DNA of 54,756 bases from a virus (Duplodnaviria > Caudoviricetes), in the IMG/VR virus record IMGVR_UViG_3300005588_000719, positions 1 to 54,756 of that record, one strand, 5' to 3'. A program made the translations under genes and the position numbers. Shown here piece by piece: positions 21,148 through 36,586 of this stretch (its first letter is position 1; each line of letters starts with the position of its first letter). Below the pieces are notes generated by a model. That model was not told where the DNA came from and did no database searches. It was given only the letters and a program-made list of their open reading frames with translations.

Positions 21148-21220
21148 GCGGAGTTATCATAACAGGTTAATGAGCAATCTATCCAAGATTGATAATAGGG
21201 TTCAAGTCCTTAACTCCGCT
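21148..21220 (+). tRNA. tRNA-Gly (TCC), non-canonical (A33, A15:A48, no encoded CCA)
   Basis: GCGGAGT TA TCAT AACAGGTTA ATGA G CAATC TATCCAA GATTG ATAA TAGGG TTCAAGT CCTTA ACTCCGC T; all four stems pair. Confidence 0.88.
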
Positions 21221-21241
21221 CTTTCTATTTAGGATAAAAAT

Positions 21242-21976
21242 ATGGCTGACAATCAAAAAAAAGTAAAAGAAATCAATGCTATTTTAAAGAGTTTAGGCTT
21301 ACCAGAAATTGTAATCTTAGATCCAAATTCCTTAATTGCACAGAAAAAGAATGCTCGCTATTTTAAACCAGAGAAATTTCAAACACTAGTAAATAATATT
21401 AAAAACGAGGGTTCATTAAAGTCTGCTCCTTTAGTTTATTATGATGAAGATGTAAAGAAATATAGAATAATAGATGGTTCGCACAGAGTACAAGGGGCAA
21501 AAGACGCAGGTCTAAAAGCAATTATGTGTTTCTTAGACAATCCAAATTCAAACGATGAAAAAATATCAAAACAATTATCTTTTAACGCTTTAACAGGCGA
21601 AGACGATAAATTAATATTAGCTGAGTTATTCAAATCAATCAAAGATATAGAACTTAAATTTGCAACAGGATTAGATGACGAATTACACAAAATAGAATAT
21701 TCATCTCTAAACTTTATGATTGGAGCTTCGAAGCAATTAACAGTTTTATTCTTGCCTGAGGATATTGCAGAATATGATAAAGGAATGGAGAAAATTGCAC
21801 AAGACCTTTCAATCAAACCATCGGACGAAATAAGAACAACAAGTGTTGAATATTGGGACAAATTCGTTCAAGCTATTTTAAAAGTTAAAAAGAATGAAAA
21901 CATCAAATCAAATGGTAGTGCAATATTGCGAATGATTGAACTCGCTAATGAACAGTTGAATAATAAGGACGATTGA
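21242..21976 (+). CDS. ParB/Srx-like N-terminal domain protein
   Basis: KNARY, LVNNIKNEG, PLV and YRIIDGSHRVQGA. Confidence 0.85.
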   Translation: MADNQKKVKEINAILKSLGLPEIVILDPNSLIAQKKNARYFKPEKFQTLVNNIKNEGSLKSAPLVYYDEDVKKYRIIDGSHRVQGAKDAGLKAIMCFLDNPNSNDEKISKQLSFNALTGEDDKLILAELFKSIKDIELKFATGLDDELHKIEYSSLNFMIGASKQLTVLFLPEDIAEYDKGMEKIAQDLSIKPSDEIRTTSVEYWDKFVQAILKVKKNENIKSNGSAILRMIELANEQLNNKDD

Positions 21977-21977
21977 A

Positions 21978-23333
21978 ATGTTTTTAGGAACAATCCCAAA
22001 ACTACTCTTAGAATATTTAATTGGTGAAATTAAAAGAATTAAACCAAAACGTATTTTTCTATTATTCTCTGGTAATTTTGGAGTTGAAAAAGCTATATCC
22101 AATATTTGTCCAGATATAGAAATTATTTCTACTGATATTTCATTATACTCAAGAGCAATTGGTTTTGGTTTGATAAATAAAAAATTTCAAGTTGAATATA
22201 GACCAGAGTTATTAGAACAATTTCCATTCTTTAAAGATAAGACTACTCCAATTGATTATGCCGTAGCAGTAATTTTCTTTTTAGAAGTTGCAAATAATTT
22301 AGAAAAAAATCATCACAGATATTATCGAAGTCTAAATAATGAAGCAGTTAATAATACTGAAATGTACTATAATCAAATAAAGAGCAAATTATTGAGTTTT
22401 GCAAGTACGCTTGGAAAATTAGATTTCAGAGGGATTGATGCAATTAAATTGATTGAGGAATGTGGAAAAGGTGATTTTGTATTTTTTGACCCTCCATACT
22501 GGGCGGATGGATATGATAAAATGTTCGAACAATTAGAAAAATACTTTGATTTTGATACACCAGAATTCACAGTTATTGACGAAGAGAAAACCCTTAATTC
22601 TTTAGCCTTATTACATGAAAAAGAGTGCATAGTTTATTACAGATCTATAGATGAACTTCAACTTCCGAATTACAAAATAGTATTTAAACATAATAACAAA
22701 ATTAACTCTTCCCTATTAACATACTCTAATTATAAAGAATCCACAATATCAGTTTCAAGAAAATTTCAATTCCCAACTGAACAGCCTAAATACGAACTTT
22801 TTAAATTCGAAGATGTTATCACTATAAATTCTAAGATTGTATTGAAAGAAATAGAACGAAAACACGCTAATCATTACAGGTTACTCTGGGTAAAAAAAGC
22901 TGATGCAACAAAAGGTGGTATTCCATATTTAATTTTCATAGATGGAAAAGTAATAGGTCTAATTCAAGTTGAAACTTCGCTTGGTTTTAAATATCATGAT
23001 GATATAGCAAGAATATTTGCAGACCCTTGTGTTCCTACAAGCAGATATAAAAGATTGAGCAAGCTAATATTAGCATTATGCTTAACAGAAACTTTTCTTA
23101 AACAATATAACGAAGATACTCTGTGGTATAACACGGGGTTTAAGACGGCAGTATTTACAAACGCCCATACTTCCATGAAATATAGGAACTTATTTAAACT
23201 TACAAATAGAATGCCTTTAAATAACGGCAAATACAAATACAAACTGTTGTATCAAAATAAAAAACTGTTCAAAGACTACAAATCTGCTTTGGCTTACTGG
23301 TTAAAAAAAGACGGTAAAATATTAAATGCTTAA
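21978..23333 (+). CDS. Dam-like adenine methyltransferase fused to a GNAT/Mom-like domain (putative antirestriction DNA modification enzyme)
   Basis: LFSGNF (motif I-like), STDISLYS and FFDPPY (motif IV); C-terminal ANHY, YLIFIDGKVIG, RLSKL and SMKYR. Confidence 0.72.
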   Translation: MFLGTIPKLLLEYLIGEIKRIKPKRIFLLFSGNFGVEKAISNICPDIEIISTDISLYSRAIGFGLINKKFQVEYRPELLEQFPFFKDKTTPIDYAVAVIFFLEVANNLEKNHHRYYRSLNNEAVNNTEMYYNQIKSKLLSFASTLGKLDFRGIDAIKLIEECGKGDFVFFDPPYWADGYDKMFEQLEKYFDFDTPEFTVIDEEKTLNSLALLHEKECIVYYRSIDELQLPNYKIVFKHNNKINSSLLTYSNYKESTISVSRKFQFPTEQPKYELFKFEDVITINSKIVLKEIERKHANHYRLLWVKKADATKGGIPYLIFIDGKVIGLIQVETSLGFKYHDDIARIFADPCVPTSRYKRLSKLILALCLTETFLKQYNEDTLWYNTGFKTAVFTNAHTSMKYRNLFKLTNRMPLNNGKYKYKLLYQNKKLFKDYKSALAYWLKKDGKILNA

Positions 23334-23793: not shown

Positions 23794-24252
23794 ATGTCCA
23801 GAACCAAAAAGTATTCAAAGAAAAAATTTGCTGAAGCAATTGTATTGAATGACGGTTATATTTCAGAGATAGCAAAACACTTAGATTGTTCTTGTCAGAC
23901 CGTTAAAAATTACTTAGCAGAATATGAAGATTTGGCAGAGCTTAAAGAATCAATTGATATTAAAGTTCTGGATTTGGCAGAAAGCGTAATAAGAGAATCA
24001 TTGTCAAACGGAGACTTAGAGACTGCAAAATGGGTTCTTTTAAAGAAAGGTGGAAATCGAGGTTACTCAAATAAACCTTTAGTCAATATCAATAATAATT
24101 ATGATAACAAGAAAACAGAAAATAATCTTTATTTGCAACAACAAAATAATCAAAATTTACAGCTTGCATTAAACGAAATGAGTTTAGAAGAAAAGGCGAT
24201 ACTTAAAAAATTTCTCGGTAAAACAAAAGAATTGAATGAAGCAAATTCTTGA
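23794..24252 (+). CDS. terS: Terminase small subunit (HTH)
   Basis: ISEIAKHLDCSCQTVKNY HTH; AKWVLLKKGGNRGY; overlaps terL. Confidence 0.75.
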   Translation: MSRTKKYSKKKFAEAIVLNDGYISEIAKHLDCSCQTVKNYLAEYEDLAELKESIDIKVLDLAESVIRESLSNGDLETAKWVLLKKGGNRGYSNKPLVNINNNYDNKKTENNLYLQQQNNQNLQLALNEMSLEEKAILKKFLGKTKELNEANS

Positions 24253-25768
24253 CATATTACTTACAGACAAACAAGCTGAAATAGAACTTGATAGGTCAAT
24301 GCACCAAGAATCTTATTACCATTTTTTCTTAGATTATTGGAACGTAGTAGAACCAGATATAAAATTAGTAGATAATTGGCATATAAAATATTTGTGTGAG
24401 AAATTACAGGACATATTATTTAAAGTATCTAAGCGAGAAGACAAAGAGAAAGACTTAGTAATAAATATTCCACCCGGAACAACAAAGAGTACAATCGTTT
24501 CAATAATCTTTCCTGTATGGTGTTGGGTAATTAATCCGCAATTAAAGATTATCACAGTATCAGAAGCCCAACCCTTAGCTAATAAATTTAGTGCAAGGTC
24601 AAGAGACTTAATACAATCTGAAAAATTCAAAGAACAATATCCCGAATTTAGGATAAAACAAGATAGGAATAGAATAAATGATTATGCACTAACACAAGGC
24701 GGATATAGATATGCAGTAGGTGTAGGCAGTACGATTATAGGAAATCACGGAGATATAATAATAATAGATGACCCATTATCAGTAGAAAATGCTTTTTCTA
24801 AAATAGCGAGGTTTAGAGCTAATAGATATATAGAACAAACATTGCCAACAAGGGTAACAGATAAGAAAAACTCTGCGTTCATTTTAGTTATGCAAAGATT
24901 ACATCAACAAGACCCAACTTCAATATTTATAGAAAGAGACAATGTAAATCATATCTGTTTACCTGCTGAGTTAAGCGAAGCAGTAAAACCACCAGAATTA
25001 AAAGAACATTATAAAAAGCAAGGTGGATTGTTAGACCCTATACGATTAGATAAAAAAGTTCTTAAAGGTCTTTTTGATACATTGAAATTATACGGATATA
25101 ATGCACAAATAAAGCAAACACCTATTACATTAGAAGGAAACCTGTTTAAGAAAAAATCATTTCGATATTATAACGAAAATGATAAGATGTATATATTGAA
25201 TAAAAAGACTGAAATAGTTAGATATCCTAAAGAAAATTGCCTTGTATTTGCTTCGGTTGATTTGGCAATATCACAAACAGAAACAGCAGATTTTACAGTT
25301 GTACAAATTTGGGCGTTTACTCCTAAGGCAGAATTATTATTAATAGACCAAATAAGAGAAAAGTTTTCTGGAGCTGAACATTTACCTGCATTAAAAAAAG
25401 CAAAAGATTTATATGGAGTTCAATTTTTTGCTATAGAAAATGTACAATTTCAACAATCTTTAGTGGATCAAGTAAACGCTTCTGGAATGACAGCAACGCC
25501 TATACCAGCAAATGGTGATAAAGTAATCCGTTCTTTACCTTTTGTAATGGCAATAGAAAATGAACAATGTTTCTTTCCAGAAAATAAATCATTTATGACT
25601 GAATATGAAGAAGAGCTGTTAGGGTTTCCAGATTCGACACACAAAGACCAAGTTGATGCCGGTTCAATTGCGTTCATAGTAAAAAATAAGGGAATGATTG
25701 GAAGTAATAAGAATTTAATAAGAACAAGTTCAAGATTGAAATCAAATTCATTAATTAAAAAAAGGTAA
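24236..25768 (+). CDS. terL: Terminase large subunit
   Basis: INIPPGTTKS Walker A, IIIIDDP Walker B, VMQRLH; nuclease SVDLA and HKDQVDA. Confidence 0.95.
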   Translation: MKQILDILLTDKQAEIELDRSMHQESYYHFFLDYWNVVEPDIKLVDNWHIKYLCEKLQDILFKVSKREDKEKDLVINIPPGTTKSTIVSIIFPVWCWVINPQLKIITVSEAQPLANKFSARSRDLIQSEKFKEQYPEFRIKQDRNRINDYALTQGGYRYAVGVGSTIIGNHGDIIIIDDPLSVENAFSKIARFRANRYIEQTLPTRVTDKKNSAFILVMQRLHQQDPTSIFIERDNVNHICLPAELSEAVKPPELKEHYKKQGGLLDPIRLDKKVLKGLFDTLKLYGYNAQIKQTPITLEGNLFKKKSFRYYNENDKMYILNKKTEIVRYPKENCLVFASVDLAISQTETADFTVVQIWAFTPKAELLLIDQIREKFSGAEHLPALKKAKDLYGVQFFAIENVQFQQSLVDQVNASGMTATPIPANGDKVIRSLPFVMAIENEQCFFPENKSFMTEYEEELLGFPDSTHKDQVDAGSIAFIVKNKGMIGSNKNLIRTSSRLKSNSLIKKR

Positions 25769-25774
25769 AGTAAA

Positions 25775-27301
25775 ATGTTACGAAATTTATTCAAACGTAA
25801 TATTGGATTAAACAAAGTAGTTAATTCAATAGCAGAGAAACGATTATTGAAATCATTGAAAACTGTTAAAAGTGATTTTGATAGGTTTAAAAATTTAACA
25901 AAGAATAATGATTATTCAGACCAAATATTAAGAGAATTAAACGGAGATTACACGAAGCTGTCTAGGTTACTAGATGATTCTCATGTACATGCAACAGTAC
26001 AAGCAAGAAAATCTGCTTCGTTATCAATGAATTATCAATTATTAATGAATGGAGTTAGACCTGAAATAGCTGAATTTATTAATAAAGTATTTAAAGAATA
26101 TGATATTGCAAATGAAAATGAAAAAATAATAGACTGTATTTTATACGGTTGGGTTCCAATTGAATTAGTATGGAAAATTACATCTGATTATTGGACAATA
26201 ACAGATTATATTCAACATCCTCATTCATGGTTTGAAATTGATAAAGACGGTTTAGTTTACCATAGAACAAAATCATTTAGTAAAGATAAGAAATTAGTTA
26301 GTCCAGATAAGTTAATAATAGTGTCAAACGGAAATACTTCTTTAGGCAAAGCATTACTTTCAAAATGTTATTATCCTGTGAAATTTAAAGATGCTGCATT
26401 TGAGTACTGGATTAAATTTGCGGAAAAATTTGGTTCTCCGTTGTGGCATGCTGAAGTAGGGAATGCAATAGATGACGATACCTTAGATGATATTGAAAGT
26501 GAATTAATTTCTGCAAGAGAAAGCGGAGTATTGATAACAAAAGAACAAATGAAAATTAATTTGATAAATGGAGCAAACCAATCTACAATTAATGTATATA
26601 ATAATTTAATCGGAGTTAGTAATATTGAAATATCTAAAGCAATATTATCACAAACACTAACTACTGAAATAGGTAACGTCGGTTCTTATGCAGCAAGCCA
26701 AACACATTTGCAAATAATGGACTTCCTTGTAAAAAGTGATATAAGAATAATTGAAAAGTTTTGGAACAACATAATCAAATTATTAGTAAAGAAAAACTTT
26801 ATTGTAGAAAACCAAGATACATTGCCTAAATTGGAAATGTTCCCTGAACCTAAGGCAACTATCGAAGAAGCTAATAAAACTTCAATCTTGGCTAATACTG
26901 GCGTAAAATTCAATAAGAAATATTATGAAAATAACTTTCATTTACAGCAAGACGAGTTTGATATAGTCGATGTTGTTCAAAACGCACCACAACAAATAAT
27001 GAATGCTCCTGAAAATGATATTGAATTTAAAGAGAAAGTAAAAATTAATAATGCTTTCGAAGAAATTCAAGATGTAATAGACTCTTGGGACGGCAAAACA
27101 GAAATTAATGATTTAATTGATGACATGATTAACGGAGTTCAAAACCTTATAAAGTCTGGTAAGTCCTTCAAATCAATTCAAAATGAAATAATTAAATATA
27201 TAGATGACGATACTTTAGCAGATACTTTTGCAAGCAAATTAGAAAATCTATATTTTAATACTTTCCTTCATGGTGTTGTAAATGGAGAAAAAAAGATATG
27301 A
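25775..27301 (+). CDS. Portal protein (Mu gp29/DUF935-like)
   Basis: WIKFAEKFGSP and EISKAILSQTLTTEIGNVGSYAASQTH. Confidence 0.92.
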   Translation: MLRNLFKRNIGLNKVVNSIAEKRLLKSLKTVKSDFDRFKNLTKNNDYSDQILRELNGDYTKLSRLLDDSHVHATVQARKSASLSMNYQLLMNGVRPEIAEFINKVFKEYDIANENEKIIDCILYGWVPIELVWKITSDYWTITDYIQHPHSWFEIDKDGLVYHRTKSFSKDKKLVSPDKLIIVSNGNTSLGKALLSKCYYPVKFKDAAFEYWIKFAEKFGSPLWHAEVGNAIDDDTLDDIESELISARESGVLITKEQMKINLINGANQSTINVYNNLIGVSNIEISKAILSQTLTTEIGNVGSYAASQTHLQIMDFLVKSDIRIIEKFWNNIIKLLVKKNFIVENQDTLPKLEMFPEPKATIEEANKTSILANTGVKFNKKYYENNFHLQQDEFDIVDVVQNAPQQIMNAPENDIEFKEKVKINNAFEEIQDVIDSWDGKTEINDLIDDMINGVQNLIKSGKSFKSIQNEIIKYIDDDTLADTFASKLENLYFNTFLHGVVNGEKKI

Positions 27302-36481: not shown

Positions 36482-36510
36482 GTTAATTCTTTTGTAGTGG
36501 TTTAACTTAG

Positions 36511-36586
36511 TGCCGTAGCTGGGGCTTGAACCCAGAAGTTGTAGTTGTTTAATAAATCCTGTCGCTTCTCCAAGCTGTTCTACGGC
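36511..36586 (-). ncRNA. tRNA-like element: intact acceptor and T arms, no anticodon arm
   Basis: GCCGTAG-44 nt-CTGGG TTCAAGC CCCAG CTACGGC A. Confidence 0.7.

Follow-up and report, generated by a model that had tools for sequence, protein, structure and literature searches.

A tRNA-Gly-like RNA recurs beside a Dam-like/GNAT fusion enzyme in distant phages and may be a glycyl carrier for DNA modification

Introduction

What role could a tRNA-Gly-like gene have at the head of genes for a ParB-fold protein and a Dam-like/GNAT fusion enzyme in a tailed phage? The question is raised by IMG/VR provirus record IMGVR_UViG_3300005588_000719 (Caudoviricetes), whose 54,756 bases were analysed as one stretch, called the window here. 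An earlier note, made from the sequence of the window, had proposed that this non-canonical RNA supplies glycine privately for the modification of phage DNA. To our knowledge, Mom, the DNA-modifying enzyme of phage Mu, was the first case in which charged tRNA was found to supply a modification of DNA. In the portion of Silva et al. (Nat Commun 2026, PMC13219725; bioRxiv 2023) drawn on here, Mom was shown to move glycine from Gly-tRNAGly, the donor named in the note, to N6-adenine in double-stranded DNA, followed by a rearrangement on the base. By covariance-model and homology searches, the pairing of the tRNA-like RNA with the Dam-like/GNAT enzyme was found to recur in distant phages, which is the new finding of this study. 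The RNA family retains the determinants of glycylation, whereas its decoding positions drift.

Results

The tRNA-Gly-like element of the window

Default ARAGORN made a single call in the whole window, tRNA-Gly(tcc) at 21148-21221 on the plus strand. The element ends with U73 at 21220, leaving a 21-nucleotide (nt) gap before the ParB ATG at 21242. All 21 stem pairs are formed, one of them G-U (G51-U63): the acceptor stem is GCGGAGU/ACUCCGC, the D stem UCAU/AUGA, the anticodon stem CAAUC/GAUUG and the T stem UAGGG/CCUUA (U49-A65, A50-U64, G51-U63, G52-C62, G53-C61). The D loop AACAGGUUA carries A14, A15, G18 and G19, the anticodon loop UAUCCAA reads U32, A33, U34, C35, C36, A37 and A38, the variable loop AUAA places an A at position 48 and the T loop is UUCAAGU. 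CCA is not encoded, the base after U73 being C, and at position 33, where a canonical elongator has U33, the element has A33. The glycyl-tRNA synthetase (GlyRS) identity set is complete in the window element (G1-C72, C2-G71, G3-C70, U73, C35, C36). In the part of Rietmeyer et al. (PMC7826273) drawn on here, the determinants are given as G1-C72, C2-G70 (as printed), U73, C35 and C36. The element is thus a real and complete cloverleaf heading the ParB and Dam-like/GNAT genes, and the features first read from the sequence (the spacing to ParB, the identity set, A33, A15 with A48, and the T-stem pairs U49-A65, A50-U64 and G51-U63) proved correct in each detail.

General models recognised the element poorly. 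RF00005 was silent on it at E ≤ 1 (701 bases), at the gathering score of 29 bits (whole window) and at E ≤ 10 (direct search), whereas a covariance model of its own family (R1, described below) scored it at 67.7 bits. The single-sequence minimum free energy was −20.5 kcal/mol (z = −3.68 against shuffles), and the corresponding structure differs from the cloverleaf, which evaluates at −17.5 kcal/mol. Covariation among relatives supports the cloverleaf despite this difference. In the alignment of 17 sequences underlying R1 (A2), 93.8% of cells were paired, compared with 62.8% in shuffles (none of 500 as high) and 38-49% in slid controls; 17 of the 21 pairs were changed on both sides, and the covariation score was 0.827 against 0.222, a value that none of 500 shuffles reached. 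A larger alignment fitted to the model agrees with this cloverleaf, although it leans towards the model.

Recurrence of the RNA beside the enzyme

A single-protein scan of viral contigs recovered no relatives of the enzyme; a query with an alignment of 45 homologs succeeded instead and recovered 251 relatives in IMG/VR, of which the best 80 loci were used. A tblastn search of GenBank added 17 phage records that encode the fusion protein (10 from phages of Mycobacterium, 5 of Gordonia and 2 of Faecalibacterium), and four of these phages were inspected: Megabear, Clawz, Soos and FP_Brigit. The survey set comprised the window and 83 homologous loci (84 in total, cited by L numbers).

Covariance model R1, built from 17 ARAGORN-called sequences (A2, aligned with MAFFT), gave 45 matches at E ≤ 1 in this set: 41 family members, one per locus, together with three tRNA-Phe and one tRNA-Lys. 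A family member was accordingly present in 41 of 84 loci, in 22 of 49 clusters at 60% protein identity and in 41 of the 71 loci that were adequately flanked; of the 43 unmatched loci, 13 do not extend to 1000 bases upstream and 1500 downstream. The enzyme's strand carries 39 of the 41 elements, the exceptions being L064 and L070. The linkage extends from phages of Actinobacteria to a phage of 29% GC. The expectation that homologous operons carry the tRNA therefore held for these 41 loci and failed for many relatives, including those closest to the window.

Default ARAGORN made 28 calls on the 84 loci: 10 Gly, 12 '???', 2 Trp, 3 Phe and 1 Lys. The 12 '???' calls carry a 2-nt anticodon 'tc' and form one near-identical group. 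The two 'tRNA-Trp(cca)' calls (L030:313-382 and L031:313-382) have the Gly-type acceptor GCG...CGCUCCA and the loop UUCCAAA, one base out of register with the family UUCCA, and exemplify mislabelling.

Among the cultured phages, Megabear (Mycobacterium) has an annotated tRNA-Gly(tcc) abutting the enzyme gene. In the Gordonia phages Clawz (L001:4823-4896) and Soos (L092:2321-2392), the gap upstream of that gene contains a tRNA-Gly-like element that the GenBank records leave unannotated; ARAGORN, run on Clawz of the two, missed the Clawz element. In FP_Brigit (Faecalibacterium, MG711465.1), the slot upstream of the enzyme holds a tRNA-Lys(CUU) that is not Gly-type (L002:4732-4808); its anticodon loop is normal, its first pair is C1-G72 and it includes an encoded CCA. 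An S-adenosylmethionine (SAM) synthetase gene (L002:1963-3141) lies 1.8 kb upstream. The donor in this phage might conceivably be lysyl, or SAM might have a role.

The two opposite-strand elements, L064:1230-1301 and L070:150-222, are canonical minus-strand tRNA-Gly(UCC) genes near the contig starts, some 50 nt ahead of the enzyme gene; that of L064 scores 65.3 bits on RF00005. They may be host attachment-site (att) tRNAs at a prophage border and not part of the module.

A search with filters off added no members, and a second-iteration model (R2) found nothing new in 49 loci beyond the FP_Brigit tRNA-Lys. Full records were searched for 13 viruses with unmatched loci (12 from IMG/VR, and FP_Brigit). 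Two hold a distant family member: in one, a provirus with a completeness rating of 99%, it lies 4.3 kb ahead of the enzyme gene, and in the other it has the 6-nt loop ACACCA and is at least 12 kb away. Three further records gave weak matches outside the family, namely two Val-like tRNAs and the FP_Brigit tRNA-Lys. The record of L006 contains a tRNA-like gene called Val(gac) (L094:1501-1594) that ends in A73 and whose anticodon region is interrupted by a 39-nt insertion; this gene does not belong to the Gly-like family and may be an intron-bearing phage tRNA.

Candidates of 63 nt that appear to have no D arm (L055 and L057, 1868-1930; L058, 1708-1770) came only from a stricter acceptor-stem pattern scan, which also recovered known members; a loose scan was too noisy. 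They have GCG...CGCUCCA ends, combine a T-arm with a long anticodon-like hairpin whose pentaloop is CACCA or GUCCA, and are found some 1.1-1.3 kb before the enzyme gene. They received no support from the covariance models and were not counted.

Conserved and variable positions of the RNA family

The columns invariant in A2 are G1, C2, G3, C35, C36, G53, C56, C61, C70, G71, C72 and U73, that is, the GlyRS identity set and the T-loop core. In the wider family, all 41 rows retain the GCG...CGCU ends together with the central CC, and each of the 30 distinct sequences keeps G1-C72, C2-G71, G3-C70, U73, C35 and C36; CCA is encoded in 17 of these 30.

The anticodon loop presents the opposite picture. 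Among the 28 distinct sequences whose loops are ungapped, U occupies position 33 in 15, G in 6, A in 5 and C in 2, and position 34 is U in 14, A in 10, C in 3 and G in 1; bacterial tRNAGly are not known to use A34. A 32-38 C-G pair is possible in 13 of the 28 loops and would shrink the loop to five bases, NNCCA. Some members have anticodon loops of 5 or 6 nt, and the T-loop and D-arm vary in some, the T-loop of Clawz being deviant at 8 nt. The two Gordonia phages illustrate the pattern at close range: Clawz has the loop CUUCCGG and Soos CCCCCGG; the anticodon stem differs by compensating substitutions, and positions 33 and 34 change from UU to CC, while C35 and C36 are unchanged.

Conservation of A33 among homologs, which the earlier note had put forward, was thus not borne out: A33 is common to the window, L007, L033/L042, L034 and L036, and the trait that the family has in common is a lost constraint on the anticodon loop, of which A33 is one instance. 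The homologous copies are also not randomly decayed, since the identity set is invariant while the decoding positions drift. Together, an invariant GlyRS set and freedom at positions 33, 34 and 32-38 form the signature expected of an RNA under selection to be glycylated and not to decode, and the pattern fits selection for glycylation rather than decoding.

The Dam-like/GNAT fusion enzyme

The 451-amino-acid (aa) protein matched PF22555 (DAM-like-phage1) over residues 2-270 (E = 2.9e-33, 115.7 bits) and PF22559 (GNAT-phage-like) over residues 285-445 (E = 1.8e-26, 93.4 bits), each against a curated cut-off of 27 bits, and both domains were present in all 45 homologs. At 50% identity and E ≤ 0.001, the GNAT-domain family numbered 1210 representatives. 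Among the best 150 of these, the majority are 425-485 aa long with the GNAT domain at about 270-450, which indicates that the fusion is the norm.

The AlphaFold2 model of the fusion protein had a predicted local distance difference test score (pLDDT) of 90.2. In the VIA comparison of this predicted structure, residues 1-254 matched the Dam family (E. coli Dam, 2g1p_B: Z 15.1, root-mean-square deviation (rmsd) 4.3, 196 residues aligned; DpnM: Z 14.9; T4 Dam: Z 14.1). Among 36 representatives of the domain, G32 and D53 are each kept in 35, N33 in 27 and P173 in all, and the motif I region of the window protein reads F-S-G-N-F-G at the position of the FxGxG SAM loop. The window protein has FFDPPYW at residues 169-175, with DPPY at 171-174. 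This motif IV is mostly FPPT, YPPF or DPPV in the other representatives: D171 is present in 10 of 36, Y174 in 4 of 36, and the full DPPY only in the window, L008, L012 and L017. The description of the protein as a DPPY methyltransferase therefore suits the window, which has both the tetrapeptide and the Dam fold, and does not extend to the family. Because the catalytic tetrapeptide is mostly lost, the Dam-like domain of most members is unlikely to methylate and more plausibly binds DNA and flips a base. In the subclade to which the window protein belongs, it may still methylate.

The GNAT domain was modelled separately, since the VIA list for the whole protein was filled by the methylase domain, and folded alone with a pLDDT of 93.8. 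Foldseek returned ordinary acetyltransferases, with neither Mom nor Fem among the best 50 matches listed; Fem was likewise not among the VIA matches listed, a listing that by itself leaves similarity possible. The domain model, Foldseek and VIA agree on a GNAT fold, as the earlier note had proposed for the C-terminal domain. A PDB sequence search with the family profile gave no matches. Residues invariant in the GNAT domain (numbered within the domain D71, L85, T112, S121, K123, Y124, R125, Y147 and W163; positions in the whole protein are higher by 278) fall in the motifs SDF/DP, YKRLSKL and PVSMKYRG (alignment A4). The canonical acetyl-CoA (coenzyme A) pyrophosphate-loop motif is Q/RxxGxG/A, whereas the corresponding position here reads RYKRLSK and is glycine-free, which argues against a CoA donor and would suit the phosphate backbone of a nucleic acid.

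ParB, DUF488 and the genomic setting

The packaging/late operon of the window opens with a four-part module: the tRNA-Gly-derived RNA, the ParB-fold protein, the Dam-like/GNAT fusion and a DUF488 protein (Table 1). Pfam and PHROG matches bore out the predicted succession of ParB and a fusion of a DPPY-bearing Dam-like domain with a GNAT domain, with terminase downstream. The ParB protein matched ParB_N at 2.5e-6 (27.9 bits, cut-off 26.3) and phrog_7405 at 5.3e-48, and G79, H81 and R82 of its G..HR motif are invariant in 34 sequences. Homologs of ParB were detected by phmmer in 82 of the 84 loci, adjoining the enzyme gene wherever the gene order was listed. DUF488 homologs, the fourth recurrent component of the module, were detected in 55 of the 84; nothing significant was found for DUF488 among PDB sequences. 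Burroughs and Aravind reportedly predicted DUF488-containing phage nucleic-acid-modifying systems in 2023.

The commonest gene order is DUF488 > tRNA > enzyme > ParB (21 loci), and the tRNA otherwise stands before DUF488, before ParB, as in the window, or after ParB. The order ParB > enzyme > DUF488(minus) of the window recurs in L004/5, L008 and L012. In the window, the DUF488 gene converges on the Dam-like/GNAT gene with a 4-base overlap at the stop codons (23330-23333). The module adjoins terminase genes in the window and FP_Brigit, whereas Soos has a small-terminase gene upstream of the module and Clawz a portal gene downstream.

Table 1. Module and neighbouring genes in the window
Feature	Position	Strand	Evidence
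Head, tail, protease genes	~4.7-20.9 kb	minus	PHROG scan
tRNA-Gly(UCC)-like gene, non-canonical	21148-21220	+	ARAGORN, sequence, covariance model R1
ParB/Srx-superfamily protein, 244 aa	21242-21976	+	Pfam ParB_N, phrog_7405
Dam-like domain (residues 1-270 of 451-aa fusion)	21978-22787	+	PF22555
GNAT-fold domain (residues 279-451 of 451-aa fusion)	22812-23333	+	PF22559
DUF488-N3a protein, 127 aa	23330-23713	minus	PF22751 1.2e-11, PF04343 7.8e-6
Helix-turn-helix (HTH)/small-terminase-like open reading frame (ORF)	23794-24252	+	weak HTH matches
Large terminase TerL	24236-25768	+	phrog_38 8.4e-87
Portal	25775-27301	+	phrog_113 4e-64

The record (CheckV completeness 71%, G+C 29%) has the gene content of a temperate tailed phage, as judged from a PHROG scan of 68 further window ORFs; it includes genes for replication, a CI-like repressor and a plus-strand gene for a minor head protein, likewise 3' of the terminase genes. 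None of these 68 ORFs matched an aminoacyl-tRNA synthetase or a CCA-adding enzyme, and charging would therefore fall to host enzymes. The sequencing runs listed as containing the record were DNA runs from marine-sediment metagenomes, which may be its source, with no RNA run among those listed. The promoter and terminator scan was uninformative (21 promoter-like sites against 18.6 expected; no terminators). A relaxed ARAGORN run (-ps90) placed a weak tRNA-Leu(taa) at 36510-36586 on the minus strand, among the replication genes, where no default call was made.

Discussion

A candidate glycyl carrier for DNA modification

The RNA and the enzyme are very probably functionally coupled in some way, as their linkage has held in distant hosts while the gene order varied. 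As to the nature of this coupling, we lean with modest confidence towards a dedicated, non-decoding glycyl carrier that feeds a Mom-like modification of DNA. The comparative evidence strongly favours this central idea of the earlier note, whose chemistry is so far a prediction. In this mechanism, the tRNA-like RNA would be transcribed, matured and CCA-tailed by host enzymes and then glycylated by host GlyRS, which is plausible because all known GlyRS determinants are kept. Its defective anticodon loop (A33 in the window; loops of 5 or 6 nt, non-U33 or A34 in relatives) would bar it from ribosomal decoding. The GNAT domain would take the glycyl group from the 3' end of the RNA and pass it to a base in phage DNA, the likeliest target being N6 on an adenine that the fused Dam-like domain presents, on the model of Mu Mom with host Gly-tRNAGly. 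ParB and DUF488 might have accessory roles, perhaps in DNA loading and in processing of nucleic-acid ends.

A more far-reaching formulation is held tentatively, with slightly less than even confidence. These modules might represent a widespread class of phage DNA hypermodification with a virus-encoded, non-decoding tRNA-Gly carrier, in which selection acts on nothing but the GlyRS handle (three acceptor pairs, U73, C35 and C36) and the 3' end and the rest of the RNA is shrinking, possibly to a form without a D-arm in some members. The Dam-derived domain, lacking the methyl-transfer motif, could then be the base-flipping half of a GNAT aminoacyl-transferase, with ParB and DUF488 as partners.

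Several observations weigh against the glycyl-carrier reading. The window RNA is among the milder deviants of the Gly-like family: its anticodon loop has the normal 7 nt with A33 as the sole defect, which could still allow weak decoding, and the window protein, having DPPY, could simply be an N6-methyladenine methylase. The likeness to Mom is also limited. In an exhaustive VIA comparison with 48,161 chains, Mu Mom (8bv8_B) ranked first for the GNAT domain (Z 11.2, rmsd 3.4, 143 residues aligned), with acetyl-CoA GNATs (1y9k, 5isv and others) within 1 Z of it, a tie and not a distinct match. The Mom profile PF25680 had no match in the Pfam scan of the 451-aa protein, whereas Mu Mom itself, as a control, scored 2.4e-75 on it, and hhalign of the family alignment (A1) against Mom gave a probability of 0.8%. 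Thus, the term 'Mom-like' in the earlier note stands for the fold, with Mom as the nominal best structure, and fails for the sequence, which lies outside the Mom family. Moreover, no tRNA was found within about 3 kb in 30 of the 71 adequately flanked loci; such absences include the nearest relatives of the window (L004/5, L006, L008, L010 and L012) and all six loci on contigs of metagenome-assembled genomes, which are among its closer relatives. Eight of the 13 full records had no match of any kind, one of them a provirus rated 100% complete. Absence of family members even from full records implies that the enzyme does not need a private tRNA. The identity of the tRNAs was also unrelated to that of the enzymes (Mantel r = −0.03, 1255 of 2000 permutations as high), which fits repeated capture or host-driven convergence better than it fits long co-descent. 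A complex prediction for the enzyme and ParB (score 0.22, mark 0.32), neither for nor against binding, is counted on this side as well.

Alternative explanations

The RNA might instead be a target or regulator of the enzyme, being methylated by the Dam-like domain, acylated on its aminoacyl group as by TacT or AtaT, or serving as a decoy or antidote. The linkage shows that RNA and enzyme work together and leaves the direction unsaid, and GNAT toxins with Gly-tRNAGly as their substrate have been described (citations in the part of PMC13219725 drawn on here). We nevertheless regard this explanation as unlikely. The pyrophosphate-loop position of the enzyme has none of the glycines of the canonical motif given above, and both the ParB-fold DNA protein that accompanies the enzyme in nearly all loci and the location of the module beside or downstream of terminase genes (window, FP_Brigit, Soos) suggest that DNA is the object of the chemistry.

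It is similarly improbable that the element is an ordinary phage tRNA, either a supplement for decoding GGA/GGG or a replacement for tRNA-Gly cut by a defence nuclease, with an inherited synteny and no coupling to the enzyme. tRNA genes are common in phages, many relatives do without this one, and the window element has a full elbow (G18, G19, T54-C56, A58) as well as its 7-nt loop. Canonical anticodon loops in L051, L064 and L070 also count in favour of an ordinary tRNA and against a non-decoding carrier, and 5 of 19 representative element-bearing loci reach the RF00005 gathering score. Ordinary tRNAs would not, however, be expected to be so uniform in identity, 24 of the 28 default ARAGORN calls being Gly-type and 4 other. 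Free positions 33 and 34, loops of 5 or 6 nt, A34, the deviant T-loop of Clawz and the two pattern-scan-only candidates apparently without a D arm describe poor decoders, in which the GlyRS set is nonetheless invariant. Changes of gene order have also left the linkage intact, from Actinobacteria to the 29% GC phage.

A cis-acting element, either a signal for processing by RNase P/Z that releases the operon mRNA or makes it more stable, or an att-site remnant of a host tRNA-Gly gene, would accord with the position of the tRNA at the operon head with no terminator-like site found by the scan between it and ParB, and with the canonical opposite-strand genes near the contig starts of L064 and L070, but is very improbable, since a processing signal needs neither invariant C35, C36 and U73 nor an encoded CCA, several loci place the element after ParB or kilobases away, and whole cloverleaves with compensatory changes are unlike att remnants.

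Implications

If a glycyl carrier of the kind favoured here exists, tRNA-dependent DNA chemistry would be a broad strategy rather than an oddity of Mu, given the 1210 representatives of the GNAT domain. The phage would bring its own glycyl carrier, chargeable yet unfit for the ribosome, whereas Mom draws on the host translation pool. This would be the first viral non-proteinogenic tRNA and would mean that viruses evolve such tRNAs, as staphylococci do for the cell wall; the enzyme would be the second, independent family of tRNA-dependent DNA-modifying enzymes. Some 'odd' or unannotated phage tRNAs would then be enzyme cofactors and not translation aids. The RNA family also offers a natural series of candidate minimal GlyRS substrates, and cultured, tractable cases are available in Mycobacterium phage Megabear (M. 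smegmatis), Gordonia phages Clawz and Soos, and Faecalibacterium phage FP_Brigit.

Comparison with known systems

In the full-text literature searched, no phage tRNA-Gly tied to a GNAT/Dam-like/ParB/DUF488 module was found; the likely relevant work of Burroughs and Aravind (2023) lies outside that coverage. The window proteins belong to PF22555, PF22559 and PF22751 above the curated cut-offs, and these are computational families with predicted functions only. The N-terminal domain resembles the Dam family (E. coli Dam, DpnM and T4 Dam) in its fold (Z 14.1-15.1), in keeping G32 and D53 and, in the window, in DPPY; it departs from that family in the widespread loss of motif IV among relatives and in the fused GNAT domain.

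The enzyme shares with Mu Mom (PF25680, 8bv8) a phage origin and a GNAT fold, which forms the single domain of Mom. The mom gene is a late gene and the module here heads the packaging operon, and a glycine-specific tRNA is implicated in both, here through genetic linkage. The sequence relationship between the two is undetectable, and the means of handling DNA would differ: in the part of PMC13219725 drawn on here, Mom binds DNA via an HTH-like insertion, which may assist base flipping, whereas the present enzyme has the fused Dam-like domain. According to the same text, all three E. coli tRNAGly isoacceptors serve Mom, so that Mom acts alone with any host tRNAGly, whereas the present enzyme is accompanied by ParB, DUF488 and, in about half of the loci, a deviant tRNA of its own.

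The closest parallel for the RNA is the non-proteogenic tRNAGly of staphylococci, used by FmhB, FemA and FemB. As described in the part of Rietmeyer et al. (PMC7826273) drawn on here, FmhB prefers these species, while EF-Tu sequesters the proteogenic ones. Both cases involve an extra tRNA-Gly that keeps the GlyRS determinants, and diversion to a transferase is proposed for the phage RNAs. The staphylococcal tRNAs are cellular, serve peptidoglycan synthesis, have normal anticodon loops and are set apart by D- and T-arm determinants and EF-Tu affinity, whereas the RNAs described here are viral, lie beside an enzyme of DNA type and deviate mainly in the anticodon loop.

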